From: Protoeuglena noctilucae
Lineage: Eukaryota
Direction: 5' to 3'
DNA length: 64,000 nucleotides
Assembly (NCBI GenBank): GCA_958009085.1
Contig: OY253674.1
Location: 186,001 to 250,000 of the forward strand
Part shown: positions 1,069 to 55,200 of the stretch, one piece after another
Layout: the number at the start of each line of letters is the position of its first letter
Position numbering within the stretch: the first letter of the stretch is position 1
Notes under the pieces: model-generated
Told to the model about the DNA's origin: nothing
The model's input: the letters and a program-made list of their open reading frames with translations, nothing else
Databases searched by the model: none
Translations under genes and position numbers: made by a program

Positions 1069-4000
1069 ATGGTGGAGGCTGCTGGTGGCCTGGCGCCCAC
1101 GGCGTCCACGCCGGTCTTGCCGGCCGAGATAAGCAGGATCCCGCCACTGCCGCCGCGCGGGGGCGAAGGCAGCACCGCGACGACGGCGGGGGTCGGGCGG
1201 CAAGGAGGGGGCGGGAGGGTGATGGAGGAAAGCGGCAAGGTCGTCGCCGGGGACGCGCGCGACAGCGGCCCGAGCACGTATACGGACGGCGTGAAGGGTC
1301 CCGGCATCAACTCGGCCCCGGCATCGCAGACCGAAGACCACAAACGCTCGCGACGCGTGCGCGTGGCCCCCGAGCCGCCCGCGCCGCTGCGCCGGCGGAG
1401 TTCCAGCATGCGCGCGCGGCGGAACAACGCGGCGGAGCGAAGGGTCCAGAAGTTCCGCGCCAAGCTGGGTGAGCGCGGCGGGCGCGCGCGCCGGGGCTCG
1501 GGTCATTTCGCGCCCACTGCCCATCTCCCACCCCGCTCCGCCCTCGGCGCCCGCAGACGCCTGTCCGGCGTGGGAGCGCTTCCTGGTAACGATTCTCCAG
1601 TCGTGGCCCTACACGCTGCTGGTCTGCGCCGTCGCGGTGCTGCTCTGCGCGACCGACACGGTCGTGGAAGTGCTGGCGGCCGGGGGAGCGGCCGTCTGGC
1701 CCGGGTACGCCCTGGCGGGGGTGCTGTTCGCCGTCACGGTGCTCGACACGACGCTCCATTCCGTCGAGGCGCTGCGGCGGGTGCTGGACTTGGAGGGCAC
1801 GCACGTCGTGCTGATCGGCCTCGACGCCCTCGCGCTCGCCTGCTTCGCGGCCGGGCTCGCCATCACCGGCAAGGTCTTCGTCCCGTTCCTCACGGGCCTC
1901 ACGACGGTGTCCTCGGTGGATTACGCGCGGACGGAGCTTGCGAGAGAGTCGCAGGAGCGGGCGACATCGATGGGCCTGCTGCTCCTTCCCCTCTTCAAGC
2001 TCGTCACCGCTCTGCACCGCAAGACGTCCTGGGAGCGCAGTCTGTACGGCCGGCGCGCGGACGCGACCCGCCCGGCCCGCTCGCTCCGCCGGGTGGTGCT
2101 GTTGCTGGGATGCGTCACCGTGGTGCTCTTCGTGGCGCTCGCCCAGATCCAGCTGTCCGCCGGGCAGATGTGGCACGTGAATCCGACTCAGGTGGACATG
2201 AGCCCGCCGATCTTGGTGAACGTGGTGGCGCACGGGGGGGTCGGGGACGGGGCGTCGGCGGAGGCGGCGATCGAGGAGACGAACGAGGTGAGGGGGTTGT
2301 GGGGTGTGGGGTATGGTGGTGATCATGATGGTGTAATGCAGTAATTGACACCTTGCTATCTCATTCAATTCCTACCCCCCCCCCCACCCCTTCCCACTCC
2401 GCAGCTGAGCCGCTGCGCCAAGGCGCTGTGGGTGGAGCGCGACGGGGCGGTCGTAGCCGGCACGCCCGGCTCATCTGGCGTCGACCTGATCGTCTGGTCG
2501 GACGATAACACCACGCGCGGCTTCTTCTCCCTCACCTGCACGCTTCCCGTCGCCAAGGCCGCTTTGCTCGCCAAGATGGCGGTGGTGGCGGCCGAGATCA
2601 TCGCGCTTGTGCTACTGCACATCCTGGGCCACTCCCAGGTTGTGAGGCCGCTCGTGAGGTTGCTGAGTCAGGTGTTGTGGATGGCGTCGCACCTGGACGA
2701 GTCGGGAATGCTGCTGGATAAAGACGCATACGCGGGGGACTTCACGGCCGAGGGGGCGGTCGACCGGGTGGTCAAGTCCAGTGAGTGGTGGTGGTGAATG
2801 AGTTGTATTATTTAAGAATGATTGGGAGTGGAGTGCATAGCAATGGTGACCACAGAGGGGGCGGTGGACCCGGTGGTCAAGTCAAGCTGCCCGGCTGAAT
2901 GTCACAATGCTCATTCATTCAAATTAACCAACAAACCCCCTCTCTCCTCCTCCTCACCCCGCAGTCAAGCTCCTCTTGAAAGCGTCGTTCCGCGGCGGCA
3001 ACGTGATGCGGCGGATGCTGGCGCAAGCGAAAGAGGACGGGGGAGAGCACGATGCAGGGCTGATGGAGATATACGGGGTCGCTCCTAAGAAGATCACCGC
3101 AGCTACGGATAACTGGGCGGCGAAGAGGGAGACCAAGCACGGGACGGGCAGCCAGACCGAGTGAGTGGGGGGTTGGGGTGGGGGGGGTGGGGTCGTATAG
3201 TATGGTGGGGGTTGTGGGGTATTGGGGCATGCAGGGGTGTTAACCACCCTGTCACGTAACGATCCAATTACGTAGTACTAACCTCTTTGGAACTGTCACC
3301 CCATTAACACCAACTCACTCACCCCCACCCCATTCCCCCTCCAGGGCCGCCTGGGACGCGCTCTTCCGGCGCCCCTCCCGCCGCGAGACGGCGCGCGACC
3401 CCCTGCAGCCCGTGCAGAGCATGGCGCTGCACCAGAATTTGAAAATGTCGGCCACGTCGTCAGCGGGGGGGGACCGGGAGAGGCGGGGGGTGCGGTCGCG
3501 GCGGCCCCCGGAGCCGCCCATGGAGGAGGGGAGGATGAGGTGAGGGATTTGAATGTGGGGGGTGAGATTTGAATGGGGTGAGATTGGTGAGATGAGGTGG
3601 GAGCTGGGCACTGCTACCGCTTACCCCCACTCACCCCCCTCCCCCACACACACCCCCAACTCACCCCACTCACCACCCCTCACACCACCCCCACTCACCC
3701 CCCCTCCCCCCTTAACCCCCGCAGCGCCCCCCGCGTCTCCGCGGGCCCCGTTTTGGTCGACGCGGGCGTGAGCAGCCAGCACTCGCATTTAGAAAACGAC
3801 GCGTCCGAAAGCGCGGAGGTCGACGCATGGCGACAAGCACTCACCCACCTCGGCACCCCCAACTGGGACGTATGGGGCGTTCGAAAGGACTTGCTACCGT
3901 CTATGGTGATGGAGATGTTCCGATCACTGGGGCTGGTCGATGCGGCAGGGCCGATGGTGTCGGTAGTGAGGGGAACGTCAGTGGGGAGTAGCAGGCGGAT

Positions 4001-7000
4001 GGCGGGGACTGCGGCGGGGGGAGCTGAGGGGGAATCGGGGGCTGGGACGCCGGTGGGTGGGGCGGCGGGGGCGGGGACGAGGTTCGCGAGGCCTAGGAAT
4101 CACTCCAGCGGGGCGCCGGCCAGGGTGAGGGGGATCATTGGGTGGGGTGGGGTGAGAGTGGTGGTGGGGTGAGGGGTAGCGAGATGGGGTGATGTGGGGG
4201 GGTGGTAGTGGGAGTGGTAAGTGGGGCGCCGGCCAGGGTGAGGGGGGTGGTTTGGGGGGGTGAGGGGGGTGGTGATTGGGTGGGCTAGTGGGGGTGGTAG
4301 TGACAGGCGGGGCGCCGGCTAGGGTGTGGGGAGGGGGGGGGGGGGTTGTGGGGTAGTGGGGGGAGGGGAGGGTGGGGTGGTGGCGAGGGTGAGGGTGGTG
4401 AGGGTGGCAGTGAGGGTGGCAGTGGGGTTGAAGGGTGTTAGTGTGGGCATGTCCAACCTTGGCGACTCACCGTGACTTACCATCACTCAATCCTCTCATC
4501 TCACCTTTTCTCATCTCACCTTCTCCCCCACTCTCAGGGCATGTCCAACCTGGGCGACTCCAAGACCCCTCGTCGCATGTCAGGCCACCCTTCTGTCAAC
4601 TTCGTGCATGCGGGGACGCTCATGTCCTTTCTGAACGAGGTGCAGAGGAGGTACTTGGATAACCCGTACCACAGGTGAGGGTGGGAGTGATGATAGGGGT
4701 GGGAGTGGGGGTGGTCATAGGTGTGAGGTTGAGGGTGGCAGTGGGGAAGTGGGGTGGGGGTGGTCGTGGGGTTGGTGAGCAGCACTCTCGTGTGCGTCTG
4801 CCCTGCAATCGTGCTTAGCAGATGGGAGCACGCGGTGGACGTGACCCACACGACCACGCATATGTAATAACACCACCAGTATCCCATGTATTATCAATAC
4901 TTATAACTGCTCTTCCCCCCCAGGTGGGAGCACGCGGTGGACGTCACGCACACCACCTTCATGATGCTCAAGACCTGCCGCTCCTTTCGCAAGCACTATT
5001 TGACCAAGCGCGACATCTTCTGCCTCATGGTGGCGGCCGTGGCGCACGACATGGGGCATCGCGGGGTGAGTGGAGTGGGGTGTTTAAATGGGGATATGAT
5101 GGTTGTGTGTGGGGCATGGTGCGACGCTCACTCCCACCCCCCATGCCACCCTCACTCCCACCCCCACTGCCACCCCCCATGCCACCCTCACCCCCACCCC
5201 CACTGCCACCCCCCATGCCACCCTCACCCCCACCCCCACTGCCACCCCCCATGCCACCCTCACCCCCACCCCCACTGCCACCCCCCATGCCACCCTCACC
5301 CCCACCCCCACTGCCACCCCCCATGCCACCCTCACCCCCACCCCCACTGCCACCCCCCATGCCACCCTCACCCCCACCCCCACTGCCACCCCCCATGCCA
5401 CCCTCACCCCCACCCCCACTACCACCCCCACTCCCGCCCCCCCCCCCCCCCCCAGGTCAGCAACGCGCACCTGGTCAAGACGGGCGACATCCTGGCGATG
5501 ACCTACAACGACCAGTCCCCCCAAGAGCACATGCACGTCTCTGCCCTGTTCCAGTTGTGTCAGAAAGTGCCGGGGGCCAACATATTCGAGAATTTCCCCA
5601 AGGCGGACTTCGAGGAGTGCAGGAGGCTCATCATCGAGGTGAATCACCCTTTTTCTTCAGCTGCCCTTACTGCCACCCCCATCATCAAACTCTCATTGCC
5701 ACCTCCACCACCACCCTCACTGCCACCCCCACTGCCACCCCCACCCCCACCCATGTTACCACCCCCACTGCCACCCTTACCATACCATCTCACTTATCGA
5801 TCACCATCTACCCCTCCCAATACAGTTGATCCTCGACACGGACATGGCGTGCCACTTCAAGCGCGTGGCTGAGTTGGAGGCGCTGCTCGCCAAGGCAGCC
5901 GCCAAGGAGGGCGTGCTGGTGGACAGCGACAGCGATAGCGACAGCGACGGGCCGTTCGGGCTGGAATCCATGGTGAGGGGTGGTACCGGTAGGAGTGATA
6001 TAGTTATGGTAATAGCAATGGTGACGCGCTCACCCACTCAACCACTCACTCACCTCCACTCAACCCCCCTTCCCCCGGCCGCCCCACTACTCACTCCGCC
6101 CCACCCACTCACCATCACTCCCTATCACTCTAATCAATCGCAATCATCTCCCCTCCAACCGCAGACCGACCACGCCCTCTCCCCCGGCCGCCCCACCCCC
6201 CGCTACGACCCATCCGACGTGCGGCAGATCATGCTCGCCATGCTGCACGCCGCCGACCTGGGCAACAGCGTGAAGCCCGTCCACTTGCACGCGCGGTGGT
6301 CGGTGCACGTGATTGAGGAGTTTTTTCAGGAGGCGGGGCTGCAGAAGGAGCTGGGTATGACGTCTTTGGCGTTCATGGACCCGGCGCAGTGCTACGTGCC
6401 GGTGACACAGGTGAGTTGGGTGATAAGGGGTGGTGGTTGAGGATGGGTGGTGGTGATGGGGGGTGTGGTGCAACGTGCCGGTCACGCAGGGGGGGGGGTG
6501 ATTGTGTGGTGATGGGTAATGGGTGGTGGTGATAAGGGTGATAGGGGTGGGGTGCAACGTGCAGGTCACGCAGGTGAGGGGGGGGGGTGATGGGTGGGGT
6601 TGATAGGGGTGGTGATGGGTGGACTATGATAAGGTGTGATCGATACTAAGTGTCACTACTAATCAACTTATCACACCATCCATCCGTCTCATCCAACCCG
6701 CAGCTCGACTTCCTCGACTTTGTGGCCCGCCCGCTCTTCTCGGTCATCAGTCGCCTGCTGCCCGAGGTGGACTACATGCTGGGCGCGCTGGCCAAAAACT
6801 ACGCCTTCTGGTGCTCCGTGCTCGCCGAAGACCAGTTTTCCAAGTGAGTTATGTGTATATATAGATATGGATGGGTTTCGTGATGGTAATGATTGATGGT
6901 CGACTGTTGATCAATGGTCGATGGGTTGATAAGTGGGGTGACATGCAGAGGACCAGTTCTCCAAGTGAGTCATTTATATGTGGATGGGTTGGTGGTAATG

Positions 7001-7880
7001 TTACTAAGTAGATGGTGATTGATGGTGGATGGATGGGGTGAGTGGGTGATCGGCTGCCTCCTCACCCTGACCTCCTCACCCTCACCCTCCCCTCCCTCAC
7101 CCTCACCTCCTCGCCTCACCTCTCTCTCCCCAACTGCATCACCCCCTCCCCCTCTCCCTCTCCCTCTCCCTCACCACCCCTCCTCACCTCACCTCTCCCT
7201 CCCCCCCCCCATTACCACCCCCCACTACTCACCTCTCACCACCCCCTCATCAACCCCTCACCTCCCCCTCACCTCCCCCTCCCCCTCCCCCATCCCCCCC
7301 CTAGGAACGCCTCCGGCCTCGTCTCCCACCCCTCGGCCACCCTCGTGCAGCGCCGTACCGCCAACAGCTCCGAGTTTAACATGGACGGCGCCAGAGCCAG
7401 ACAGGCAGCGTTCTCAGGCGCCCTGCGCCACGGCAACACCGGGCTGGGTGGTATGGGTGGTGGTGGTGGTGGTGGTGGTGCGGGTGCGGGTGGGGGTGGT
7501 GCGACGGCGTTGGTTATGCCGGAGGCTTATGCAGACAATGAAGATCAGCTGCGGGTGCTGTCGGCGGCCATTCCGCAGCTGCGGGCGATGGGGAGGGGGA
7601 TCACGGGTGAGGGGGGTGGGGGAGATGGTGGTGCGTGGTGCTGTGGCGGCGGTTACTTGGGGATGGACGGGAGAGGGGGGGGGTGCGTAGCTGTTAATTG
7701 TTGTATCATCGAATAGATAGATAAGAGAGGGTGGTGTAATGTGCTTGTGATGTGCAGCTCCATGCCCAGTCATGATGGTGGCATGACACGTCTGTCTGAC
7801 ACGCCTTTCCCGCAGACGCTGCCCTGGCGCTGGTCCCATCCGAAAAGAAGAAGGCGTTCGCGGCGAAGCTGGGGCTGTGA
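1069..7880 (+). CDS. Class I cyclic-nucleotide phosphodiesterase with N-terminal multi-pass membrane domain (about 12 exons; start uncertain)
   Basis: Spliced translation gives the PDEase motifs [65 protein letters not shown] and VTQ/LDFLDF. In-frame GT-AG exons: 1069-1468, 1557-2287, 2405-2780, 2965-3160, 3345-3539, 3725-4124, 4538-4673, 4924-5065, 5456-5638, 5826-5972, 6165-6410, 6704-6843, 7305-7606, 7816-7880. Exons 2-3 contain hydrophobic segments. Confidence 0.88.
5128..5450. repeat. Intronic 36-bp C-rich tandem repeat (CCCCACCCCCACTGCCACCCCCCATGCCACCCTCAC), about 8 copies
   Basis: Directly visible. It lies within PDE intron 5066-5455 and produces the spurious 12-aa periodic ORFs in the track. 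Confidence 0.95.
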
Positions 7881-13143: not shown

Positions 13144-13801
13144 GGCAATTTCTGGCTGGCAGCGAGCGCTGGCGGCAGGAGGTCATCCCCATGGCCACAT
13201 CGGCTTACGCGCTTAAAGAAACCGGCGTTTCGCGCACTTACTTGCTCTTCGCTTGCAGTAGCTGCGCCTGCATCGCTGCCAAAGCGCTTCTGCGCCCCTG
13301 GTGCGCGTATGCTCGTGAAGCCACGCACGTGGGGCGCCATCTGCGGCATCGGCTCCGCTGCTGGCTTCGCTGGCGCGACATTCTTGCTCTTCGTCACGGT
13401 GACTTTTGATCAACGAGCAGCTGCTGGCGCTTGCGGCGGTCAGCATCGCTCCCGGACCTCCGTCAAGTGCCCCCTCCCCTGCAGCCGTTTGCGGAGGACT
13501 CCCCGCCCTGGGCGCTGCTCCTTCCAGCCAGACTAGTAGTGTTGACTGTCCCAGGTACATCGCCGTCCTCCGGCCGTCCCTTCCGCGCGTCTCCGCAAAC
13601 TGTGGGGACGTTCCAATTCCGCACCTCCCTCGCGCGACGCAGTGCTCGCGGGGACGCTCCTCTTCTCCGCCGTCCTCTTCTACGCCGGCCTAGTCCTCCT
13701 GTGCGCCGCGTTGGGACGGCCCCTGCGGAGTTTCACGGCCCCGGCCGTGGAAGCGGTACGCCAGCGTGTCGGTCACGACTAGCGCGTCCCAGGAGATCGC
13801 G

Positions 13802-16800
13802 ATGGCCTCCTCGAGCGCGAATCCCGAAGCGTCGGTGCCGGACCTTGCCGACTGGGGCCAGCAGTGCGACGAGGTGCTGGCCCTTGCCGCCATCTACGGG
13901 GACGCCTTCCGCATCGTCAATGGCACGGGCCTGCCCCCGCATCCGACGCCGGACGACCTCGATCGGTGAGCCCGTTCGCAACTGCATAGATCATGTCACT
14001 CGTCCATTTGCATCTCATCCATTTGCATCTCCTCCACTCGCTTCTATCTCCATGGCTCCTCACTGCGCCACCTCACCTACAGCAGCGCGACATCATACAT
14101 CGTCTTTTGCGCAGGGATGTGCCCGTCCCGGACCTGGAGGTGGCGATCGAGGTGCCCGTGGAGCTCCCCGGCCCCCGCGTGCGCCTGCAGCTCTTAGCCG
14201 CTGCGTCCGAGGGAGAGGTGGGCCCCAGCACAGCACGACCAGTGATTGGCAGAGTGCCATCGGCGGCCACGCCCCTGAGCCCCTCTTCGTCCGCCCCGCT
14301 AGTGCCGCTGCGGTTCTTGCCGCCCATCGAGGCTCGGGCGACGCTGGGTGCGGGGTACCCATCCACCCGCGCCCCGACAGCTCATGTGGCGGTGGAGTGG
14401 GGCAGCGAGGGCGCGGGCGAGCGGATGGAGGCTGCGCTGCGGGACGCGTGGGAGCGCGTGCGGGGCATGCCCGCGCTGCACGCGTGGGCGGAGTGGCTGA
14501 GGGAGAGCGCGCTCGAGGCGGCGGGGGTGGTGGACCTGGGCCCAGCCCCGCTGCTGCAGGTGAGGGGCGCGGGGGTGGTGTGGCAGGAATAGCAAGCTGC
14601 GGTTGCGATCGTGACAGTTTGCAACTGCGGTGGATGGTGATTGCTGATTTGTGAATGGTGATTGGATGGGCTGGGAGGGCTGTAAGCCGGTGGCAGGTGG
14701 AGTGCTTACTACTATGGATGGCACGCGTCACTGTATGGATTGCAAGCGTCGTTCCAGCCACTCCACAGGTGGTGCTGGGGGACGGGGAGGACGCGGACGA
14801 CGCGCTGCGCTATTTGATCGAATTCAGCGCGCGCAAGGAGCGACAGGCCTTCGAGGATCGCACCCACGAGTGCCAGCTTTGCGGGGAGGACAAGCCCGGC
14901 GCGCACTTCCTGCAGCTGCCCGAGTGCCGCCACGCCTACTGCCGGGCGTGCCTCACGTCGCTGTGCTCGGTACACGTCAAGTGAGGGCGCGATTCTGACG
15001 TGACACTTTGCGATTATGAGAAGCTAAGATTTGGGCAGTCTGCATAGAGCCTCACCTTCTAAGCCAACGGGGGAGGTGAGTGTTCATCCTACCCAGGTTA
15101 AGGTGCAGAGTGGCCCGCATCACGCATCCACACTTGTGCTAGACTTGTGACATGCATCCATGCCTCCAGGGAGGGCTCCCTGGCGATGCTGCGGTGCCCC
15201 GACCCCGAGTGCAAGCGCCCCCTGCCCCACTACGTGCTGAGGGACCTGCTGACCGACGAGGAATACCAGCGGTGGGACGAGCTGTCCCTGGCGAGTCGCG
15301 ATGCGCACATCACGATAAGCGCGTGGCACGTCTGCTGACTGACTATCCTTTTAGCAAGCGTGTTTGCACATTGTGCATGACACCTCGCACTTTTGCGCAT
15401 GGTACTACGCACCTCACACGCAGAATAGGCCCATTCCACCTGACATTCTGCATGCACTCCCACCCTGCAGCGCCATGCATGCACCTCCCCCCCAGCCCAG
15501 TCCCTTACCCCACCTCTCCCTCCGCCCCCCCAGTCGCGATCTCTGAGCGTAATGGGCCTTCAGTACTGCCCCAGGTGCAACACAGCTGCAGAACAAGAGC
15601 CGGGCCGCGAGAAGGGCGTGCCTCTGGCTCAATGTCCCAAATGCATGCTGGTCTTCTGTTGCCGGTGCCGATTGCCAGATCACGTGGGGGAGTCTTGTCC
15701 AGAGGCTATGTACAGAGCCGGGGCAGACGCGGAGGCACTCGAAGCGAGCATGCAGGGAGAGCTGGCCAAGTTGAAGCTGACGGCGGAGCAGGTGAGAGGG
15801 GTTACATGATCCCCCGGGCGGAGTTGCATCACCGATCCCTATCTCACGGACCCTAGAAAGGCCAGCTTGTGATGCAGCGCCGAACAATAGATGTTCTCAT
15901 GTTGAAAGTTCTACCCTCTGGTGCGTATGGGGCGTAACCCGCATAACCCGCATCACCCGTATCACCCGCATCGCCGCAGGAGCGGGAGCGCAGGCGTCTG
16001 GCGTCGGAGCGCCGTGCCGAGGCTGGTTTCCGCAAATACCTGAAAGAGACCGAGGTGCGCCACTTGCGGTGCCCGGTGTGCACGGCGGTTGTGTTCAAGT
16101 CGAGCGGATGCAACAAGATGATGTGCACCGCGTGGTGAGACCTGCTGACATGAGTGAGTGTGTCGAGCATGGCAGTATCGACTGAATGGCTCATCGTCAT
16201 TGCCTGGTAAGACCTTGCATCAAGCGCGTGTGATGTGGGGCGTGGCAGTGTCGGCGGCTTTGCCTGGCGAGACCTGTTAAGTGTTTCCAGGTCAGCCCAT
16301 GTCATAGCAGTGTCATCATTCAATGTTTCACTCAGTCTGCCTGACTCGTCCCCCTCCCCCCGCAGTTCCACTCCCTTCTGCTTCAATCACTGCCACATCA
16401 TTTACTCAGTCTACCTCACCCTCCCCATCCCTCGCAGTTCCACCCCCTTCTGCTTCCTTTGCGGCACTTGCATCTTACACAACCATATCACTCCTCCCCC
16501 CCGCAGTTCCACCCCCTTCTGCTTCCTCTGCGGCTCCCAGATCTCCGGGTACGACCACTTCAACGCCGAAGCACGAACCGGGTCCGCCCAATGCGCGGGC
16601 CGTCTCTTTGATCAAGAGGAAGTCAACGCATGGATGGCCGCACAGCAGTGGGTCCAGAACAACGCGCAGCGCAGGGCCCCTGCTGTGGTACGCGTGCCCG
16701 ACCGTGCCTACAGCAACTGTGTGAGGTGCGGGCAGCTGACGGAAAAGGTGGCGAACAACAACCACATGCGGTGTGCGGCGTGCAACAGTCAGTGGTGCTA

Positions 16801-20360: not shown

Positions 20361-20424
20361 GCTGATTCGTAACATCCATTGAACGGACAGCGGACAAGAA
20401 CACGAGGGGAAAGCTATTGCATAT

Positions 20425-39548: not shown

Positions 39549-40440
39549 GGCCGAGCGCCCCGGCACGCGCCGTCCTCCGGACGTATCAAAGGATTAATCC
39601 TGAGGTGGTAGGTGCGCGAGATCGTCTGGCGCGGGGTCTGCGCGCGAAGCTGGGCACGAGCCGGCGAAGCGCGAAGTGTGGCGGGGCCATCGTGGCTGTG
39701 TCAAGCTTCCACGACATGCGCGGGCCTTTGTCAAGGAAGGCCACCATCGATGGCGAGTGACCGCAGCCTGAAGGCCGCGAGGAAGGCCTCAAATGCGCAC
39801 AGGCGCTCGCAGCCCAGCGGCTCGGACCCTTCCGCCGCTCACGGGCGGCAGATTTGTCTGTGGAGCTGGCCGTGCTGCATAGTAAGCGACAGCATTGCTC
39901 TGATCATGCCGCACGCACCTGTCGTCCCCAGCGGAGTCGCCATCTGGATGGGCCAGTGCAAACAAGCTGATTGGATCAGCGCGTGCCCAGGATCCCTCCA
40001 AAGCACACTTTCTGAACACTTGTGGCGGACCTGCATCGGCGATCGACCTTGACCAGCCCGCAAATGCCTGAAATGTTTGCCCGTGCCAGCGACACGGTGT
40101 CTTTTCCCCCTTCCTGATGTTCCTGAGCGACGGATGGCGCCAGCGTTGCGTCATTCGGTGCATGTAGTTGCCGTTCTAGTCTCTGCTGTAACAAATACTT
40201 CGCGGATCGGCGCGCCCGAGCACTCAATGCAGCGTTGCGCTTCCCCACCAGGTTTTGTCCGACGCTTTGAGAAACAGATCGTGTGCTTTGCGTGAAATCA
40301 ATCGTTACTTAGTTGTCTCCTCCTGCTTGGTCAGGGCAAGGCTCTGGTGCAGTTTCCCCTCGGAGAGTAGGCGTGGGCGGCTGGGCTGGGGGACAGCTCC
40401 CGCCTGCGCACCTGGGCGGGGCTGAGCGGGATCCGTCGCG

Positions 40441-43400
40441 ATGCTCAAGAGCAAGGCCTTCATCAAGGTTGGACGCGCCGCCCTTTGGAAGCCCTTCAGA
40501 AGCCACAGTGGCGCAGCGAGCCTGCGACCGCGCAGGGCATGGCCGCGTCGCTTCGGGAGAGGCCCTCCCGCTCGTCCTCGCGTCGATGTGATCGCCAAGC
40601 CACTCTATATGTTCCGCAGAAGACCCGGAAGGGCGCCGTGAGCAAGGTGGTGCGGGAGCACTACCTCCGCGATGACATTTCGTGCGGGTCGGCCTCTTGC
40701 GCGTCGTGCGCGGCCCCGGAGGCCGGCGCGCCGCTCTCCGCGGGCCCCGGCGTCACGTACCTGGTCGTCGACACCAATGTGGTCCTCCACCAGCTCGATT
40801 TGCTGGAGCACGCGTCGGTGGCGAACGTCGTTCTCCCGTCCGTGGCGCTCGAGGAGGCCCGCAAGCGCAACCACGCGGCCTATACGCGCGCGCGTGCGAT
40901 CGCCTCGACTTCCGATCGCCATTTCTACGTCTTCGCCAATGAGAACCACAGGGACACGTTCGTGGAGGCGAGTCAGGGCTGGGTGTCATTGTCACTTGTC
41001 ATGTTGTCATGGCACAGCTGCTGTCTCTGGGCTTTAGCTATGGTTTCCATCGGCTATATCTGCTGCATGCGCTGTAGCGGCAACTCGTGCGCCACCGATG
41101 GCACCTTCCCCACACCTCCAGCATGTGACTGCCACGTCTCATGCAGCACGTTCGGTATCGCACCCGCCCACCCTCCGCGCCCCCGCAGACGCTGCCCGGC
41201 GAGTCCCCGAACGACCGCAACGACCGCGCCATTCGCCGCGCTGCCAAATGGTACGCTGAGCATCTGGCGGGCAAGGGAATCAATGTCGTGCTTCTGTCCG
41301 ACGACGCTGACAACCGCGCAAAGGCAGAAGGTGAAATGAAGCATCGGAGAGATGAAGCATTGGAGACACAAAGCGATGTGTGTGCATTATAAGCAAGCAC
41401 GCTGGTCCGCGCTCGCTTGACGCCCATGTCTCTGTCTAAGCTCTCATCGCACCTTCCAGGACCCATCTATTCTATCACACACAGCATGCTCCTGACCCAT
41501 CGCCACCCCACCACCCCCTCCCGCAGAGGACGGCATCCGCGCCCTCTCCACGTCCCAATTCGCCGAGTCCAAAGCCTCAGAGTGCCCAGACCTGGCGGAC
41601 CGAGTCGCGATGCGCGACGCTCACCCGCTGAACAAAGAAGAGCACCGGGATAGCCGGGGCGGGAAGCGGACGAGGCTGGCGCTCTATCCGGAGCACTTGC
41701 CTGAGGCGGAGCTGCTGGCTGGCGTGCGGGGGGGCAGGCGAGTGGGGGGCATTGGGGATGGGGGATATGTGAGGTGCTGAGTGGGGTGCACGGGGGCAGG
41801 CGAGTGGGGGGCCTTCCAAGGGGCTCGGGGATGTGTGAGGTGCTGGGTGGGGTGTGCGAGGGTAGGCGGGCGGGGGGCATTGTTACGGGGGGACGTGTGA
41901 GGTGCTGGCTGGGCAGTGGTGTGCTCTATGCAAAGTCCTGTCACCTACATGTCTCGTTGCAACCCCTGCAGGTTCCACCAGGGCCCCATCCGCATGTCCC
42001 GGTATAACCCCTTCGAGGGTTTCCTGGCTTCCGAGTCCGTCGGCCGCGACATCATCGTTTCTGGCAAGCTGGAGCTGAACCGGGCCATGGACGGGGACGT
42101 GGCGGTCGTGGAGCTCCTGCCGCAGGAGCAGTGGAGGGGCGAGGCCAGGGAATTGCCGCAGGAGGTGAGGGGGCTGCTGGGTTGTTGGGACGTGCGTGTG
42201 TACCTGCTCGTGCGCTTTTTGCTGAAGTACAGTCAAGCTGAGGCGGCAGCTGGATCGCTTGGTGAAGTACCTGGATGCGCATATCGTGCTATGCAACGCA
42301 CATCGTGCTTTACACCGCACATTGTGCCACACACCGCACTTCGCAGGGCGGCGAGGCGGGAGAGCCGAAGGAGCAGGGAGCCGCGGGCATTGCGGATTGG
42401 AGCCTGGGATCGAATCAGGTGGACGCGGTGGGTGCGGGGGCGCGCAAGCCGTGCGGGCGGGTGGTGGGCATCCTGCGCCGTGCGTGGCGCAGTCGGGGCT
42501 ACTGCGGGAGCCTGCTTGCGCCGGACAGGGTGGGCGGCAGCCAGAGCCTGCTCTTTCTGCCCGTCGACCGGCGCATCCCCAAGGTGCGCGCTTGCTGCGT
42601 GGGACAGGGGCAGCGTGGGCTCTTTAGCAAACAGCATGGGTTGATGTGCGCTTGCAGCGATGGTGACGCCATGGTGTGCCACATGGGTCGTGCGCCACAG
42701 CATACTCAACATCCATGTTTAAAATCCATTATTTGAATACCCGCGTTTGCAGATCCGGATCCGGACGCGCCAGGCCGAGCAGCTGCTGGGCAAGCGCCTG
42801 GTGGTGGCGATCGACGACTGGCCCGCCACGGACAGCCACCCCCAGGGCCACTACGTCCGCACCCTGGGGGAGGCGGGGACCATCGACACCGAGACTGAAG
42901 TGGTGCTGCACGAGCACGACGTCAACTCGGCGCCCTTCACCCAGGCGAGGCCGGCGCCAGTGTTGTATTGTTGCGGGTAGTGTTGCGGGTTCTAGGTTCT
43001 GCCCTATGGGGCTGCAGCACAGGGTGGGTGTGGGGTGGCAGTGTTGTTAGGAGTAGTGTTGCGGGTTTTCCCCACTGGTGCTACAGCACAGCGTGGGGGT
43101 GGTGAGGTGTAACTCGGTGGCTGCGAGCGTCGATATACATATTTGTTTCTTCCGTGTCTTGCAGGCTGTCCTTAACTGCGTGCCCCTGCTGCCCTGGGAA
43201 GTGGCGGACGAGCACCGCAAGCAGCCCCACCGGGGTGAGTCGCTGTGGCTGTCTGCTGTGCTGCTCGGGCTACGTTGGGCTGTGCTGATGGGCGATCAGT
43301 CTGTCACAAGCAACTCGGCTCAGCTCAGCTCAGCTCAGCTCAGCTCAGCTCAGCTCAGCTCTGCTCTGCTCTGCTCTGCTCTGCTCTGCTCTGCTCTGCT

Positions 43401-46400
43401 CTGCTCTGCTCTGTTACCATCCTCGCCGTCCCTGTCACACCCGCAGAGGACCTGCGTCACGTGTGCGTCATGTCGGTGGATCCGCCCAACTGCAAGGACA
43501 TCGACGATGCCCTTCACATCCGGGACCTGGGGGACGGCACGCTCGAGGCGGGGGTGCACATCGCGGACGTGTCGGAGTTCGTGAGGCCGGGCACGGCGGT
43601 GGACAAGGTGAGCGGAGATGGGCAGTGCAGTGCTGTGGGCGACGTGGGGGTGGAGATGAGATGAGATGGGCAGGGCTGTGCATGCGGTGTGGGGATGTGA
43701 GGTGGACAGTGTTGTGAGGCCGGGGACGGCGGTGGCTAAGGTGGGTAGAAGGGCCTGCGATGTGCAGTTGGCAGTGTTGTTGCCGACAGTGCCCCACCCC
43801 TCACCCCGCAGGAGGCGTCTCTTCGTAGCACGACCACGTACCTGGTATAGCCACGAGATGAGCAGTCGGCAGTGCTGTTGACAGTGCCCCATCTATCGCC
43901 CCCCGCAGGAGGCGTCTCTTCGTAGCACGACCACATACCTGGTGCAAAGGCGTATCGACATGCTGCCCAAGGCACTGACGGAGGAGATCTGCTCGCTGAA
44001 GGCCAACGTGGAGCGACTCACCTTCTCCGTGATATGGAGACTCACGCCGGTGACGGCGGAGCACGGAGCACAGTGTGCGCGGTGTGACTGACGACGGGTC
44101 ACACTGACGGTCGATCCAGCCGACAGTAATGTCGTTTTGGAATGGCAGCTGGCATGCGGCGACCGCAAGCAATGTGTACCATGGTACATCTCCCAAGCAC
44201 ATGCCATGACAGCACGTGCCATGACAGCACGTGCCATGACAGCACGGGGCCTCACGCATACACCCAGCATACACCCCTCTCCCCGGCCCTCACATCGTTT
44301 CCCCGCGCGCCACCGTCCCCTCAGGAGGGCGACGTGCTGGAATCGCGTTTCACCAAGGGTCTGATCCGCTCCCGCGCCGCTCTGACCTACGCGGAGGCGC
44401 AATCGCGCATCGACGATCCGAACGACAAGAGCGACATCGCTGCGTCGCTGCGGCTCATGAACGACCTCGCCAAGAACCTCCGCCGGCGGAGATTCCAGGC
44501 CGGGGCTCTCGAGGCGCGTCGCGGGGCTGCGGCTGTGTTGCACGCTCGCACTCGCGCTCACACACCCACGCACGCCCACGCGCGCACTCGGTGACCGATC
44601 CTTGGCTGTCAGTCGCTACGGCTCGACCCCGGCGGTGTCGGGTTCGAATCCCGTTGGCGATTTGACTCTCCTTTTCTCCTCCGCAGCTGGCGTCCCCCGA
44701 GGTCAAGTTCCGCATCGACCCCGACACGCTTGAGCCCAAGGAGGTGTCGGTGTATGAAACGCGGGACACGAACCGAATGGTCGAGGAGCTCATGCTGCTG
44801 GTGAGTGAGCGAGGCATGCTGAATAGTAAGGGTTTGCTGCAGGTGAGGTGGGCAAGGGCATGGAGTGGAATGGACGTGTGTCAGAGTGATATGGATAGTA
44901 GCATGCACGTGACAGAGTGAGATGGAACTCGTGCTGGGGTTCGAGGGGCATAGACATGGGATGGGTGTGCGAGTGATAGAGTGAGCGCACAGCTGCTGGC
45001 TGTTCCATATACTCCTCCCCTAATGACCCTCACTCCTCTCTCCCTTTATCCCCACCCTCCTCTCCCCTCTCCACCCCCCAGGCCAACGCGACGGTCGCCG
45101 AGCGCATTCTCCACTCTTTCCCCGCCTGCTCCGTCCTGCGCCGCCACCCCACCCCCACCGAAGAGATGTTCGCCCCACTGGTGGGCGCCGCGGCATCTGC
45201 CGGCTTTACTGTTGACGTCACCACCAGCCTGGCCCTCAGCAAGTCCCTCGACAAGTGCGTGCGAGAAGCCGACGCCTTCTTCAACAAACTCATCAGGCGA
45301 GATGCAATGGGATGTGTGGAATCTGTGTGGGACCAATCTTGATGCTCAGTTACTAGGTACGCGACACCGACGCCTTCTTTAACAAACTCGTCAGGCGAGA
45401 GGGGTGGTGATGTGCGGGACCAGCGATGTACAGCTAGCACCTTTGCACCCCCTTGTGTGACTGCGACAGTCACCAACAGTCACGAGCTGTTGCCAAGCTC
45501 CCCATACAAACCCCGCCCCCCAACTCCCACCCAACCCGCTCACCCTCCCCACCCCCCAATATCACAGCCACCCGCTGCACTACCCCACCCATCCCACCCC
45601 CAACCCCCCCCTCACCCTTACCCACCCCCCAGGATCATGGCGACCCGCTGCATGACTCAGGCGGTCTATTTCAACACGGCAGAGCACTCACGCCCCGAAT
45701 TTTATCACTACGGCCTCGCCATGCCCCTCTACACCCACTTCACCTCCCCCATCCGGCGATACGCCGACGTGTTCGTGCACCGCCTCCTCGCGGCCGCCAT
45801 TGGACTCGAACCCCTGCCGGACAGGTGAGGGTTGGCATGGCGGCATGCGTTGGTGTGCTTTGCTTGCATTGGACCTGAACCCCGCAGTATGCCCCCTTCC
45901 CTCACTGCCATCCATCCACCCTTATACTCACCTTATCCCTTCTTAATCACTGCCGTTCGCACCTTATGCGCCATACCCACCCCATATCGCACCCACGTGA
46001 ACTCACCCCCACCCCTTCTCACCCACCTGCAGCTCCTTCGGCGACCGTTCGCGCCTCAACGCGGTCGTGGACAACATCAACACCCGCCACCGCAACGCCC
46101 AGTTCGCCGGCCGCGCCTCCTCCGAGCTGTTCATGACGCAGTACTTCAGCGGCAAGACACAACATGCGGACGGGCGGGTGGTGCGGGTCCGGCGCAATGC
46201 GGTGGTGGTGTTCCTGCCCAAGTACGGCGTCGAGGGGGTGGTGTACCTGGGGGAGAAGGGGTCCAAGGAGGTGAGAGTGGTTGAGGGGTGTGTGTTCGGG
46301 ATTGATGGGTTTTGTCGGAGCATGTGGGCTTGCGAGGAAGGGTGTCGTGTGGTGCGGCTATCAGTGGTGGCTTGGACAGGGTGCCGAGGAGTGACAGGAT

Positions 46401-46701
46401 GTCGGGACATGAACGAGCATTGCATTTGCCGCTTTGCTTGCCGCTGTTGTTGGATGTGCTGTGCTGCGGCCTTTTGCTGCCCCCCTCCTTCGTGCAACGG
46501 GGTCTCTTGTCGTTTCACTGACTGCAGTGGGAGATGAACGAGGGAGAGTCGGAGGTGCGGAATGGAAAGACGGGGCAGACGCTGCGGGTCTTTGACGCCG
46601 TGGGGGCCGTCATCACCGTCACCGACCACGGGCACGGGCGCAGGGAGCTGACCATCGCGCTCGCGGACCGGGGCCAGGTGCCCAAGGAGGAGCTCGTTTG
46701 A
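40441..46701 (+). CDS. DIS3: Exosome catalytic subunit DIS3/RRP44 (PIN + CSD + RNB + S1)
   Basis: [104 protein letters not shown]. Confidence 0.97.
43317..43392. repeat. Compound pentanucleotide microsatellite (CAGCT)n followed by (CTGCT)n in a DIS3 intron
   Basis: Directly visible. Confidence 0.95.
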
Positions 46702-48531: not shown

Positions 48532-51470
48532 CTACTTGCCATTGGACACGCGCACGTCGCCCTCCACCGGCTTGCCAATCGCATAGACCGTGAAGCCGAT
48601 CCGACGAAGCTCCGCGTGGTTGAGCAGCAGCCGGCCGTCGAACACGCACGCGGGCTTGACCATCGAATCGTAGATGCGCTGCCAATCGTAGTTCTGTGCG
48701 AGAGGGGCACCGGGGGGTGCATCTACGTGCTTTGGTTTCCACGCCCCGCTCCGCCTTCCTTGCCTAGCTTCGCAATCCTGGCCAAGGGCCGAACGTGCTG
48801 CTATCCTCGCGAAACGTGCTGCAGTCGTCGCCCACCCCAATCGTGCTACGCCCGTCACCTTGAACTCGTCCCACTCGGTGATGACCAGGATGCCGTGCGC
48901 CCCCTGGGCCGCCTCGTAGGGGTCGCTGCTGACGTGGACGTGCTTCTTCACCGACTCGGTGCGGCCCGCCACGATCTGCAGCAGGGTGACGCACACGCTG
49001 TCATGCCTCTTGACGGGGGTGCCAGACTGGCCCACGCCTCATAAATGGCAGCAAGGGTGGCAAGCGTGTTCGCGCCTTACAAAAGTCAACGGGGGTGCAA
49101 GAGACTGGTCCATGCATGGCCAGCTCACCTGGTCGGTCAGTGCACGCAGATGGGTCCATCCCTAGCCGGCTCACTTGGTCGATCGTTGCACACCAATGGC
49201 CCCATCCCTAGCCAGTCACCTGGTCGCTGAGGGGGTGGTCCCATTCGAACCGCGAGAAGGAGAGGTCCGTGTAGACCTGGTCCGCCCCGACCTGGGGATC
49301 GTACACCGTGATCTCCGCCCCGTCCTTCAGCAGCTCGTTGCACACGTCGATCGCCGCCGTCTCACGGGTGTCGCCTGCGCAGCACGCGGGGCTTCGGGAG
49401 CGATGTGAAGGCACAGCGCCGCTCATCCACCCTTTCCTGACTCTTTCAGTCACTGGCGCTCGCTCGGCCCCAGTCAGTGCCGGTGCCAGTGCCAACGCCG
49501 TGATTGCTTGCTGGGCGTGGTGTGTGGGGCGCTGGGGCAGTCCCATGGCACCTTCCCTGCCCTCACTCACCCGTGTCCTTTTTGAAGGCGAAGCCGAACA
49601 GCGTGACCTTCTTGCTCTTGATGGTGTTGAACAGCGTGGCCACCACCGTCTGCACAAACCGCCGCTTCTGCCAGTCGTTGATCGACACCACGCTCCGCCA
49701 GTAGTCCGCCACCACGTCCAGCCCCAGCGTCTGCGATAAGGTTGTTCACGGGGCTGCCGTGACACGCGCGGTGCTGCTCGCAGTGCAAGCTGTTGCCATC
49801 AAGCTGTAGTGGTGTGCGTCGGGATGAACCAAGCATTGGCTGCCATGCGTCATCGTTGTGTGTTTTGTGGTCGTCGTGCCCCCGTCACCCCGTCGTCGCA
49901 GTGTGCTGACGACCGCACCTGCGCGATGTAGACCAGGTTGAGGATGTCCTTCTGGAAGCAGGACCCGCCGAACCCCACAGACGCGTTCAGGAACTTGGGC
50001 CCGATGCGCGAGTCGGTGCCGATGGAACGGCTGATCTCCTGGACGTCCGCGCCCGACATCTGCGGCCAGAAACGTTGCGTCAGAAACAGGGGACGACACA
50101 GCAATGGACGATGCAAAAAAAGGTTCCATGCACGTTACTGGATAGTCACAGCTCGCCGGAGCGCCCCGCGTGGCCCGGCTTGCACCCGGCCCGCACCCCG
50201 GCCGCACCTCGCAGATGGCCGAGATGGTGTTGATGGACGAGATGCGCTGGGCCAGCATGGCGTTGGCCGTGAGCTTGGCCAGCTCCGCGGACCAGAGGTT
50301 CGTGAGCAAAATGCGCTCCTCCGGGACCCAGTGGGCGTACACGGACCTCAGCACATTGGCCGCCTGCAAAGCGCAAACACGGTGAGGCGATCGATCGTCC
50401 CAATCGAGGCTTAACCTCCCGCCGCACCGTGCTATGACGCTGCAGGTATGAGAAGCACCGAGTTAGCACAGGCACAGGCACAGGCATGGACACTCACCGT
50501 GCGGCCCGACTCAGTCTGCCGCGACCCGATCAGCACACGGTCCGGCGCTTCCAGGTCCTTGATCGCCGTGCCCTCCGCTAAGAACTCGGGGTTGGACAGG
50601 ACGTCGAAGGCGATGTTGTCCAACCCGTTCTGCAAAACACGGGCAGCCCAGAGGCGGTCAGGCGCAAACGGACCGCCCCGCGTGCCGGCCCTGCAGCCCA
50701 GGCGAGCAGCGGCGTCACCGTGTTGGCCGCGAGGACGCGCTCGATGGCCTCGGCTGTCTTGACCGGCACGGTGGACTTCTCCACGATGATCTTGCGCTGC
50801 CCCGGGAGCGAGTTGCGTGCGATCATGCGGGCCGCGGACTCCCAGTAGGTCAGGTCCGCGGCGCTGCCCGCACCGATGCCGGAGGTCTTGGTGGGCGTGT
50901 TCACGCTGCGGGGGCCAGGGACCGGGGCGCGGGGCCCGATCGCGACCTGCACTGCGCCTCGGGGAGAGCGCAGCCCGGCCTGCGCTGCCCCGGGCGGCCT
51001 TGCGGGGCTCCCGCCGCGCGAGCAGGCGAGACGCACCTGACAAAAATCATGTCCGCGTCCCGGACCGCGGCGTCGCAGTCCGTGGAGAAAAAAAGGTTGC
51101 GGTTGCGGGCCTCCTTGACAACCTCGGGAAGGCCGGGCTCGAAGATCGGGAGGGTATCGCTATTCCACGCGTCGATCCTCGCCTTGTTGATGTCCACCAC
51201 GGTCACGGTGATCTCTGCGCGCGCGGCCCAGATATCTGGCATGGCGCGCTGTCCGCGACGGGGCTGGGGAGCCAGATTCCACGCACCACGCGCGGCCCGG
51301 ACCGCCCGCGCCAATCGAGGTTGGACACCCGCGGGCTCGGAGACCCCGCCATGAGGAATCGCCCGGATCCCGCGCCCGCATTGCCCGCAGCACCTACCTG
51401 GGCATTTCATGGCAATCATCGCCATGGTGGGACCCCCCACGTAGCCAGCCCCGATGCACACGATTTTCAT
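48532..51470 (-). CDS. UGD: UDP-glucose 6-dehydrogenase
   Basis: [67 protein letters not shown] (catalytic Cys), [18 protein letters not shown]. Confidence 0.97.
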
Positions 51471-52239: not shown

Positions 52240-55200
52240 ATGCGGGCATCGACGAGCGGAGCGACCCTCCGCCGGGTCCCCGTGCCCCGGACCGCCGGCC
52301 GCCGATGGTCACCGGGCGCGGCGTGTATCCAGAGCGCGCTGAGCCTGCCGCTCGTCGGGGCGGCGGCTCCGCGTGCCCGGAGGTCTGCCATGGCGACCCA
52401 GGCGGTGGCGGAGGCTCAGGAGGAGACCTTCACGTACCAGGCTGAGGCGAGTGATGCGTACTGTGACGTTCGTCGCATTCCTGAGGGCCCTACCGATCAC
52501 AGCCAGCCCTTCAGCGGCGCTGCTTGACCCAGGGACGATGTGACCATGTCTCCGACCCTTTTGCTCCCGCAGGTGGACCGCCTGATGGACCTGATCGTCA
52601 ACTCCCTGTACAGCAACCGGGACATCTTCTTGCGCGAGCTCGTGTCCAACTCGAGCGACGCGCTGGACAAGGCCCGGTTCAAGGGCGTGCAGGACGCGGA
52701 CTATTTGGGCGACAACGCGGACTTCCGCATCCGCATCCGCGGCGACAAGGACAAGCGGACGGTGGTGATCGAGGACAACGGCGTGGGCATGACGCGGCAG
52801 GAGCTGGTCGATTCCCTAGGCACCATCGCGCGTTCTGGCACGCGCAAGTTCCTGGAGGCACTCAAGGAGTCGAAGCAGGCAGAGGGCAACAACCTGATCG
52901 GCCAGTTCGGCGTGGGCTTCTACTCGAGCTTCCTGGTGGCCGACCGCGTGACGGTGCAGACCAAGAGCCGCGACGACGCCAAGCAGTGGGTGTGGGAGAG
53001 CGCGGCGGGGTCCCACCAGTACACCATCCGCGAGGACGCGGCGGCGGACATTGGCCGGTGAGGAGTTGCCTGCTGCGCACGACGCTGCTGCTGGAGTTGC
53101 CATTGGGGCGGCGTGCGGCGGGGCGGCGCGGTGTGCGTGTGCGTGTGAGGCAGGATACACATGGGCTTCCCGAGATGGGTGCCGTGTGTCGTGACGTTTG
53201 TCTCGTTTGGCCATTTCCAGGGGCACGCGCATCACCTTGTACCTGAAGGAGGACTGCGACGAGTATGCCGACAGGGCGCGGCTGAAGAGCCTGGTGGGCA
53301 AGTACTCCGAGTTCATCTCCTTCCCCATTGAGATCTGGCAGACCAAGTGAGTTTTCTCTGTGCGTTGCGGGATGCAGCAACGCACAAGTGGTTACGATCG
53401 TTAACACCCTTGTCTCGTTGCCGCAACGTTCGCCACCCCCGGCGGTCTTCCTGGCGGTTCCCTGACGGTGTTATGTATCTCCCCTGCGCACAGGACGGAG
53501 TACAAGGACGAGGAGGACGTGGAGGCCACCAAGAAGGCCCAGGAGGAGGAGAACAAGAAGGCCGAAGAAGAAAAGCGGGAGCCGACCACCGTGGCGCCCG
53601 TGCTCAAGAACCAGGCCGTGACCAAGGAGGAGTACCAGCGCGTCAACGGTGAGATGGGTTGAGATGGGCTCGATGAGATGAGGCAGGAGTGCCAGCGCGT
53701 CGACGGCAAGTTGCCTTTACGCGTGTCGTGTGTTGCTGGTCCTGTCGCCACCATCCCATCCCTCCCCTCTCCCGCCAATCGCAGAGTCCAAGCCCCTCTG
53801 GGCCCAGAGGTCGAGCGAGGTCAAGGACGAGGAGTACAAGGAGTTCTTCAAGCAGACGTTCCGTGAGTTCGTGGACCCCCTGGCGTGGAACCACTTCAGC
53901 GTGGAGGGCACCTACGAGTTCAAGGGACTCATCTACGTCCCGGGCATGGCGCCGTTCGAACAGGTGACGATGGTCGACACGTCTGTTGACATCCACGCAG
54001 AGCACAGTGTCATGTCGAGGCACACATTCGCGGGTGGTATCGCCAGCAACCCTGCCACCACGCCAAAGCATGGATGTGTCCGTCACTCATTCTGCGCGCC
54101 CCTCACGCCCCTCACCTTTGCAGTATGGTGTGGCGGAGAAGACCCGTTCAATCCGCCTGTACGTCAAGCGTGTCTTCATCTCTGACACGTTCGATGAGGA
54201 GCTCATCCCTCGCTGGCTCTCCTTCATCAAGGGTGTCATCGACTCCTCGGACCTGCCCCTCAACGTGTCGCGCGAGATCCTCCAGGAGAGCAGGATGACC
54301 AAGGCCATCCGCAAGCAGATCGTGCGCAGGGCCATTGCTATGCTCGAGGGGCTGCAGGAGAAGCAGGAGGACTTTAAGGTGAGAGTAGATGGGCGGTGGT
54401 GCGATGATTGTCATGTGGGACGCAAGAGACGGTGCTTGTTGCCTGTCCTGGTTGGGGCTCACCTGTGTCACTACGTGACTGTTGTGTGAGACAAAGCAAC
54501 CTGCTCTTGCTTTGACATGCACACATGCGCTCAGGACCATGCACGGCACACCGGATGGCTCGTCACCCACCACTCCCTCTATGTCCCTCTGCCCCCGCAG
54601 ACGATGTGGGATTCGTTCGGCCGCAACATCAAGCTCGGCTGCGTGGAGGACCAGGAGAACAACAAGCAGCTCGCCAAGCTGCTCAGGTTCGCGTCCTCCA
54701 AGACGGACGGGGCCAAGAACGAGCTCACGTCGCTCCAGGACTACGTCAAGAGGGCCAAGGAGGGGCAGGCGAGAGGCTGCGGGGTGCTGGCGGCATGTTA
54801 ACAACGCAGTGTGGCGGCGTCTGTGCAGTCGCGCTTGCTGTCAGCGGCCGGCTGAGGTCGTGGCGACGGCGCACCCGCCAGCAGCTACACCACTCATCGC
54901 GTGAGCCTTGACGGATGGAGTTTCGACAACTGGTGCTGTCGCTTGCGTCGCAGGACAGCATCTTCTTCATGGCGGCGGACTCGCGCTCGGCGGCCGAGGC
55001 CGCGCCGTTCGTGGAGCGGCTGACCAAGCTGGGGTACGAGGTGTTGTACCTGACCGAGCCGATTGACGAGTACGTGGTGATGACGCTGGGGCAGTTCGAG
55101 GAGAAGAAGTTTGTCGACGTGACGCGGGAGGGGCTCAAGCTGCCCGAGGAGGAAGGTGAGGGCCGGGGATCGCGGCATGGCGAGGTGGCGACGAGGCGTG

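Follow-up and report, generated by a model that had tools for sequence, protein, structure and literature searches.

The locus examined here raises the question of why many of its introns carry a second copy of the edge of the exon beside them, and whether a process directed at splice junctions is needed to explain those copies. The window, by which we mean the whole 64-kb stretch of Protoeuglena noctilucae DNA that was analysed (assembly GCA_958009085.1, contig OY253674.1, positions 186,001 to 250,000, forward strand), has a G+C content of 61-68% and densely packed, intron-rich genes, and all statistics given below come from this one window. The initial annotation had described intronic copies of the adjoining exon edge, which we call echoes, and had proposed that a recurrent, junction-centred duplication builds these introns and may let splice sites turn over. 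Our results showed that the echoes far exceed chance, that they lengthen introns and leave spare splice sites, and that their source is probably small local duplication spanning the exon-intron junction.

Gene models were predicted with a splice-aware hidden Markov model (HMM) built for the window, with seven RNA-verified introns as the training seed; in the cleaning step, exons shorter than 34 nt and introns shorter than 45 nt were merged. This model replaced a self-trained frame HMM that had strayed into low-complexity introns. Gene strands were set from Pfam hits to single exons, for which 148 of 156 predicted exons of at least 45 amino acids (aa) were scanned. The cleaned models comprised 121 introns (23.1 kb) and 135 exons. 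Pfam profile positions were continuous from exon to exon in the PDE, DIS3, UGD and HSP90 genes, which supports many of the junctions. Near letter-identical DNA of the window was present in runs of organism A (among them run X4) and in marine metagenomes, and partly in marine metatranscriptomes.

A scan for short-range direct repeats recovered the sites listed in the initial annotation as copies of 20-48 nt, 82-100% identical and 51-217 nt apart. Among 32 high-complexity repeat pairs, 23 linked an exon edge to its own intron; the remaining pairs were seven intron-intron pairs (five of them in arrays that start at a junction), one exon-exon pair and one in unannotated DNA. An automatic junction test identified 30 direct copies in 19 of the 121 introns (about 16%, or about one in six). 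On the donor side there were 17 copies and on the acceptor side 13, each set spread over 12 introns. The presence of exon-edge copies in the introns was borne out at 25 of the 26 coordinates first reported. At the other one, near 49126 in the UGD gene, an array is present, but the site failed the exon-flank criterion, with only about 7 nt of exon inside. The first list lacked five copies, those at 6067, 27678, 41837 and 45548 and the weak match at 31075.

We then aligned the last or first 45 nt of every exon to every intron (242 flanks against 121 introns). The own intron was the strict best match of the 121 for 30 of the 242 flanks, against about 2 expected. At scores of at least 18 there were 13 own-intron matches, whereas the 29,040 pairings with other introns gave none; no flank matched the reverse complement of its own intron at a score of 12 or more. 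The own-intron excess was thus far above chance, and chance does not explain the echoes.

The echo-bearing introns, together with the UGD intron, are listed here by position and strand:

2781-2964, plus strand, PDE: donor-side echo 105 nt in, at 2855-2886, 91% identical to the 31 nt of the exon end 2750-2780; splice site lost, spacer unrelated.
4125-4537, plus strand, PDE: donor echoes at 4220-4246 (GTGAG) and 4307-4331 (GTGTG), array 4110-4273; acceptor echo at 4445-4468, AG lost.
4675-4923, plus strand, PDE: acceptor echo at 4819-4855 (CAG and 34 nt of exon start, 89%), with a 65-nt AT-rich unrelated spacer before the exon; the Pfam PDEase_I match starts at the exon from 4925.
5973-6164, plus strand, PDE: acceptor-side echo at 6067-6103, a copy of exon +10 to +48.
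6411-6703, plus strand, PDE: donor echoes at 6468-6490 (GT lost) and 6552-6578 (GTGAG kept).
6844-7304, plus strand, PDE: donor echo of 20 exon nt and GTGAGT at 6945-6973; also a separate C-rich low-complexity array at 7057-7300.
16135-16506, plus strand, RWD/RING/IBR E3 ligase: acceptor echoes at 16356-16384 and 16429-16465, both with CAG; unit of 69-73 nt.
17521-17676, minus strand, GPC1/DUF2838: donor echo at 17615-17640 (15 nt of exon and GTGAGGGGCGA), 51 nt in.
17953-18127, minus strand, GPC1/DUF2838: acceptor echo at 17990-18011 (CAG and 18 nt, 100%), 55 nt from the site.
26409-26652, plus strand, 'bestrophin': acceptor echo at 26559-26599 (CAG and 33 nt); an X4 contig covers 26500-26727.
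27529-27760, plus strand, 'bestrophin': donor-side echo at 27576-27611 (36 nt, 94%), ending 9 nt short of the junction, flanks unrelated; acceptor echo at 27678-27697 (CAG and 11 nt); RNA joint 27525>27758 in three runs.
27922-28079, plus strand, 'bestrophin': acceptor echo at 28010-28043, holding 27 nt of exon start with ATG in place of CAG; RNA joint 27921>28080.
28969-29359, plus strand, 'bestrophin': donor echoes at 29012-29071 and 29138-29190, each 48 nt of exon end and GTGAGT, in a threefold array; RNA joint 28967>29359 (three runs) and identical X4 contig.
30792-31154, minus strand, large minus-strand gene: weak match on the acceptor side at 31075-31107, 309 nt away from the site (79%, score 15.5 against a best control of 12), which may be due to chance.
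34686-35061, minus strand, large minus-strand gene ('Nup214-like'): donor echoes at 34977-35004 (GTGAG) and 34899-34926 (GTGTG); acceptor echo at 34726-34782 (CAG and 45 nt); array 34898-35083 of 78 nt x 2.4; X4 contig identical.
41738-41971, plus strand, DIS3, GC donor: array 41709-41913, unit of 62-66 nt in 3.2 copies, containing 29 nt of exon end and GCGAGTGGGG; X4 contig identical.
43608-43908, plus strand, DIS3: donor echo at 43714-43743; acceptor echo at 43804-43846 (98%, CAG kept); 43759-43943 is taken up by a tandem unit of 97 nt, whose copies are parted by about 8-10 unmatched nt.
45297-45632, plus strand, DIS3, GC-AG intron: donor echo at 45367-45400 (28 nt of exon and GCGAGA); acceptor-side echo at 45548-45579; RNA joint 45293>45630 (GC..AG) in three runs.
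49009-49219, minus strand, UGD: donor-proximal array of 46 nt x 2.6 at 49107-49226; Pfam profile continuous 46>47 across junction 49220/49008.
53649-53784, plus strand, HSP90C: 21-nt donor echo (91%) at 53685-53706, with GCAAG in place of GTGAG.

All 30 copies are direct, and all but the weak 309-nt match lie 51-216 nt from the junction. Twenty-one of them run at least 5 nt beyond the junction into the intron, three run 3-4 nt, and six end at or before it. The exon part of a unit measures 11-48 nt, successive copies are spaced 51-133 nt apart, and identity ranges from 77 to 100%. The sequence adjacent to an echo resembles the unspliced continuation of the intron (scores 8-23) and not the opposite exon (3-7). 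In the tandem arrays, a unit consists of the exon edge, the splice site and 30-100 nt of intron, and some loci hold two or three copies. True tandem arrays were located at 4110-4273, 6400-6582, 16356-16534, 28921-29190, 34898-35083, 41709-41913 and 43759-43943, and complete arrays beginning at junctions at 4110-4273, 34898-35083, 41709-41913, 43759-43943 and 49107-49226. The youngest array is 98% identical and still has about 8-10 unmatched nt between its copies. Unit spacings divisible by 3 numbered 11 of 30 in a hand count, showing no bias. Splice sites are often retained: GT or GC in 14 of 17 donor copies, the fuller G[TC]GAG in nine of them, and CAG in 8 of 13 acceptor copies.

Independent DNA and RNA contigs were compared with the window over positions 26500-46499. 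The X4 DNA contigs showed no differing letter over 26700-28362, 28479-43306 and 43905-46499, which contain eight echo introns, and smaller X4 contigs touch parts of the introns at 26409 and 43608. The X4 contigs are interrupted only by simple repeats (for example 43307-43422) and by the 97-nt duplication (43804-43943). Four echo introns were confirmed by RNA contigs of three metatranscriptome runs, three with GT..AG joints and one with a GC..AG joint, and each of these joints uses the exon-contiguous site and never the echo. Splice-site turnover, which had been suggested as a consequence of the echoes, was therefore not seen in these four introns; use of echo sites was judged on 15 RNA joints, in contigs that drop rare variants. 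As a separate observation, RNA contigs of the three runs have loose ends in common at 43686, within a DIS3 intron that bears echoes, and shared loose ends also occur at 32970; beyond both points the contigs run into sequence unlike the window. The 30-letter tail at 43686 has no match in the window and may be a variant allele of a natural population or a chimeric contig.

The echoes are accompanied by longer introns. Mean length was 277 nt in echo introns and 174 nt in the others (Mann-Whitney P = 5.6e-5). A hand sum of unit spacings puts the duplicated units at about 2.5 kb. The 19 echo introns total roughly 5.2 kb, so that by hand arithmetic the units fill about half of that length and about one tenth of all intron DNA in the window. 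Together with the donor sites kept in most copies, this upholds the proposal that recurrent duplication lengthens these introns and leaves spare splice sites. Splice-like motifs inside introns were counted against shuffled sequence, giving 43 donor-like motifs against 30 +/- 5.3 and 35 acceptor-like motifs against 28.5 +/- 4.7. A deep layer of ancient splice-site fossils was considered and rejected, as the motif excess approximates the number of intact echoes. The gene finder called two echoes as micro-exons (6565-6573 and 43812-43844), because the spare splice sites look functional. The Pfam RNB profile of DIS3 is continuous 55>56 across 43607/43909, which argues against the micro-exon at 43812-43844, and automatic annotation of this genome may contain the same error.

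Neutral, junction-spanning local duplication is the most likely cause of the echoes, and we consider it probable. A small local duplication in gene DNA, with a unit spanning an exon-intron junction, would produce two copies of the exon edge and its splice site. The spliceosome would stay on the exon-contiguous copy, leaving the mRNA unchanged, and the second copy with the intervening piece of intron would become additional intron and then decay neutrally, whereas duplications internal to an exon would be removed by selection. With splicing still at the exon-contiguous site, junction-spanning duplications would do no harm. The molecular route may have been replication slippage or template switching where arrays are seamless, and end-joining with filler where unrelated spacers separate the copies. 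We infer that the copies themselves are neutral.

To weigh the claim that the process is junction-centred, we used a uniform model in which duplications of the observed sizes (about 85 nt) were placed at random and only exon-internal events were removed, with pre-duplication introns roughly estimated at about 45-230 nt. Of the tolerated, detectable events, this model places 42% across one junction with 11 nt or more of exon, 34% inside introns and 24% in unannotated DNA. Counted per intron, there were 20 junction-involving cases against 6 purely internal ones (P = 0.019), and when exon-anchored copies were taken to be detectable twice as long, the excess was no longer significant (P = 0.34). 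A junction-centred process was thus not demonstrated, and the junction bias alone does not require a special mechanism. On the neutral reading, the pattern looks junction-centred because the introns were short, so that most tolerated duplications of this size span a junction.

Several results weigh against neutral duplication at uniform positions. Counted per copy, junction, internal and unannotated events stood at 30:3:1 against an expected 14:11:8 (P = 3e-7), and the excess persisted with a twofold detectability weight (P = 0.0025), in a test weakened by the non-independence of copies within one array. The exon share (x/d) averaged 0.33 and peaked at 0.53, where the model predicts a mean of 0.55 and half of the values above it, and echoes occurred at both ends of 5 introns against 1.2 expected (P = 0.002). 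Local copies were found in 1 of 160 non-exon unannotated tiles compared with 46 of 455 intron tiles, in a non-genic sample of about 8 kb that is mostly non-exon; a purely general mutation process would not predict so little non-genic duplication. Six copies end at or before the junction (2855, 4445, 6067, 6468, 27576 and 53685), and unalignable spacers of 45-73 nt, matching neither the neighbouring intron nor anything elsewhere in the window, separate the copies at 2855, 4445, 4819, 27576, 43714 and 45367 from their source; copies confined to exon sequence and copies that cross the junction are both among these. For this minority, simple tandem duplication is insufficient, and the spacers could be filler or the result of later turnover. 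The gene models underlying all of these counts are, moreover, predictions of the present analysis for a single window. The small exon share and the co-occurrence at both ends could reflect selection against long exon-like stretches and cryptic sites, and the non-genic depletion could reflect constraint, the genome being compact and its spacers short; the alternative cause of all three is a process linked to transcription or splicing.

Such a junction- or transcription-coupled process, in which breaks or template switches favour the splice junctions of transcribed genes, is the strongest of the rival explanations, and we regard it as unlikely. Candidate sites would include G-rich 5′ intron segments prone to R-loops, or places where splicing complexes stall. 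Repair over a short range would duplicate the junction, and introns would grow outward from their ends and gain spare sites. The junction-spanning excess under uniform placement, the exon part capped at 48 nt, the depletion of non-genic DNA and the joint donor and acceptor echoes all fit this process, as do the G-rich 5′ and C-rich 3′ halves of the introns and the differences between genes, with echoes in 6 of 12 PDE introns against 13 of 109 elsewhere (P = 0.0035). On the other side, the excess is non-significant per intron under the twofold weight, unit ends are not anchored at the junction, as the variable exon part shows, and the window holds no large surplus of fossil splice motifs beyond the visible echoes. 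The exon cap and the gene differences would follow equally from selection against pseudo-exons and cryptic sites, and the small non-genic sample comes from a compact genome and may be constrained. The fuller proposal, that duplication is tied non-randomly to junctions at transcribed G-rich 5′ and C-rich 3′ intron ends and supplies a standing stock of spare sites for turnover, seems to us slightly more doubtful.

Insertions with long target-site duplications would also place copies on either side of foreign DNA; the spacer would then be captured filler or an introner-like element, with the echo as a target duplication of 20-60 nt. Introners, which are transposon-derived introns, are described from Micromonas, Aureococcus, dinoflagellates and others (10.1101/2022.06.06.494994, PMC12130899). 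They resemble the present case in occurring in marine algae, in shaping introns through recurrent DNA insertion and in leaving duplicated sequence at intron ends; they differ in forming multi-copy families with short target duplications, whereas here there is no family and the copies are local ones of the intron's own exon edge. The unalignable spacers at several echoes are in keeping with insertion, as is the unmatched stretch of about 8-10 nt that separates the youngest array's copies. However, all-against-all blastn among the 121 introns of the window gave 18 between-intron high-scoring segment pairs, all of at most 27 nt and of low complexity, so that no shared family was found and an introner family was rejected. 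The spacers match nothing else in the window, homology crosses the junction in 21 of the 30 copies, and several loci are seamless arrays. To our knowledge, target duplications of 20-60 nt are not a feature of introners, and we judge the insertion model distinctly improbable.

A selected function, with the copies kept as decoy splice sites or intronic splicing regulators, is more improbable still. The intact motifs in many of the copies (9 of 17 donors, 8 of 13 acceptors) could be read in its favour, but identities of 77-100% fit neutral decay, some motifs are destroyed, the RNA joints examined showed no use of an echo site, and echoes are few in the housekeeping genes HSP90 (1 of 9 introns) and UGD (0 of 8). 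A metagenome scan for relatives with a DIS3 exon returned 80 loci at 48-82% aa identity, none of them close, and one of these (L010) is intronless. An assembly artefact through haplotype merging or repeat collapse is very unlikely to the point of being negligible, because the X4 contigs are letter-identical across eight echo introns; the copies are 2-23% diverged with different flanks, unlike merged haplotypes, and no evidence in favour was found, though X4 contigs break at the 97-nt repeat.

Other origins were considered and rejected. A cDNA-derived or retro-copied fragment was rejected because continuation scores against the spliced sequence were at background (3-7) in all 27 echoes examined. 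Polymerase-theta end joining leaves short templated copies of the flanks in direct and inverted orientation; no inverted flank copies were found here, and direct-only copies of up to 60 nt fit this route poorly. In the Rogers model, tandem duplication of an AGGT-containing exon segment reportedly gives rise to a new intron. That model shares with the echoes the supply of a second splice site and the presence of duplicated exon sequence inside an intron. A Rogers intron, however, is born within an exon, its 5′ end copying the downstream exon and its 3′ end the upstream exon, whereas in this alga the intron pre-existed and the copy lies on its source's own side, 51-216 nt inside, with more intron following. 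No case with the Rogers geometry was found in the window, where opposite-exon scores were 3-7, and intron birth of this type was rejected. Zhuo and colleagues reportedly described human introns derived from tandem arrays in 2007; the likeness would be that repeats carrying splice signals make or enlarge introns.

Tandem duplication has been treated as a source of new introns (Hellsten et al. 2011, PMC3265369; Lehmann et al. 2010, PMC2891723). The closest system is that of human paralogues, in which internal tandem repeats on exon-intron boundaries change intron structure (De Grassi & Ciccarelli 2009, PMC2812944). In that study, the units likewise cross the exon-intron boundary, alter intron content and add splice sites, in recent paralogues, often with variable copy number and frequently with novel introns or alternative transcripts. 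Compared with that account, the echoes of this alga occur in single-copy housekeeping-type genes and in about 16% of introns, with the mRNA unchanged and most loci decayed to two or three copies. We found no description of same-side exon echoes at such density for any organism in the literature searched, most subscription journals lying outside the search. Most likely, the echoes are ordinary small duplications. Short introns, and an exon copy that selection keeps frozen, would make them unusually visible and frequent.

The genes of the window, in order, are the following, with the strand of each and, unless stated otherwise, a Pfam assignment:

1, PDEase_I (PDE), plus strand.
2, PALP, minus strand.
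3, DUF1997, plus strand.
4, RWD/RING/IBR E3 ligase ('RBR' in the initial annotation), 13309-16770, plus strand.
5, DUF2838/GPC1, minus strand.
6, alpha/beta hydrolase, minus strand.
7, gene first called 'bestrophin', 23849-29541, plus strand, without a Pfam hit; strand from RNA joints.
8, large gene first called 'Nup214-like', 30363-39548, minus strand, without a Pfam hit.
9, DIS3/Rrp44, plus strand.
10, MT-A70, plus strand.
11, UDP-glucose dehydrogenase (UGD), minus strand.
12, HSP90 (HSP90C), plus strand.
13, NmrA-like, plus strand.
14, GRIP coiled-coil gene, minus strand.

The label 'RBR' agrees with the RWD/RING/IBR domains of a RING-between-RING E3 ligase. The names 'bestrophin' and 'Nup214-like' were not confirmed, as no single exon of either gene gave a Pfam hit at E <= 0.01. 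An HSP90C exon matched chlorophyte proteins at about 70% identity, below a top hit at 76%; these matches and the presence of the DNA in marine metagenomes point to a marine green alga.

Before cleaning, the 137 predicted donors read GTGAG in 62 cases and GCGAG in 15, with a few more GCGGG or GCGAC, and 130 of the 137 acceptors read CAG. GC-AG introns are common in the window, and a CAG|GCGAGA donor at 45296/45297 was confirmed by RNA contigs from three runs. In the 137 pre-cleaning introns, G exceeded C in the 5′ halves (4151 against 2619) and C exceeded G in the 3′ halves (4432 against 2568); both skews were present in 64 of the 121 cleaned introns. GGTGAG-like motifs were concentrated in the 5′ halves and their complements in the 3′ halves. 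Introns structured by pairing of their complementary ends were considered and dropped, since folding was barely below shuffles: in 113 of the 121 introns, the minimum free energy had z-scores of -0.8 against whole-intron and -0.6 against half-intron shuffles.

The window contains further repeats. Short-period arrays lie within introns at 5129-5454, 43314-43413, 33140-33270 and 7057-7300, and the types among them are a 36-nt C-rich unit x 9 (96%), (CTCTG)x20, an ATCACAC-type and a CCTCAC-type. The GRIP coiled-coil gene on the minus strand has tandem repeats of 21 nt x 8 and 42 nt x 5 at 61527-62067, the 42-nt repeat inside a predicted coding exon and the 21-nt repeat in a modelled intron that is doubtful. 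The sole echo-like direct pair outside modelled introns lies at 30242-30369 (32 nt, 88% identical, 96 nt apart), just downstream of the final exon modelled in the large minus-strand gene and near the RNA-supported minus-strand intron 29937-30118.

Intron growth and splice-site movement are poorly documented at the DNA level because their traces decay fast, and the events described here stay readable because selection holds the exon copy in place. One window thus offers 30 events that can be ordered by divergence, in which introns lengthen by about 50-130 nt per step while the mRNA stays constant and spare splice sites arise as a by-product of junction-spanning duplication. If the pattern merely reflects short introns and ordinary duplications, it would still be a caution for gene prediction. 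If its density holds genome-wide, this alga would provide a system for measuring the spectrum of small duplications, for learning by what rules the spliceosome passes over an intact duplicate site close by, and for testing whether intron DNA duplicates more readily than other non-coding DNA.

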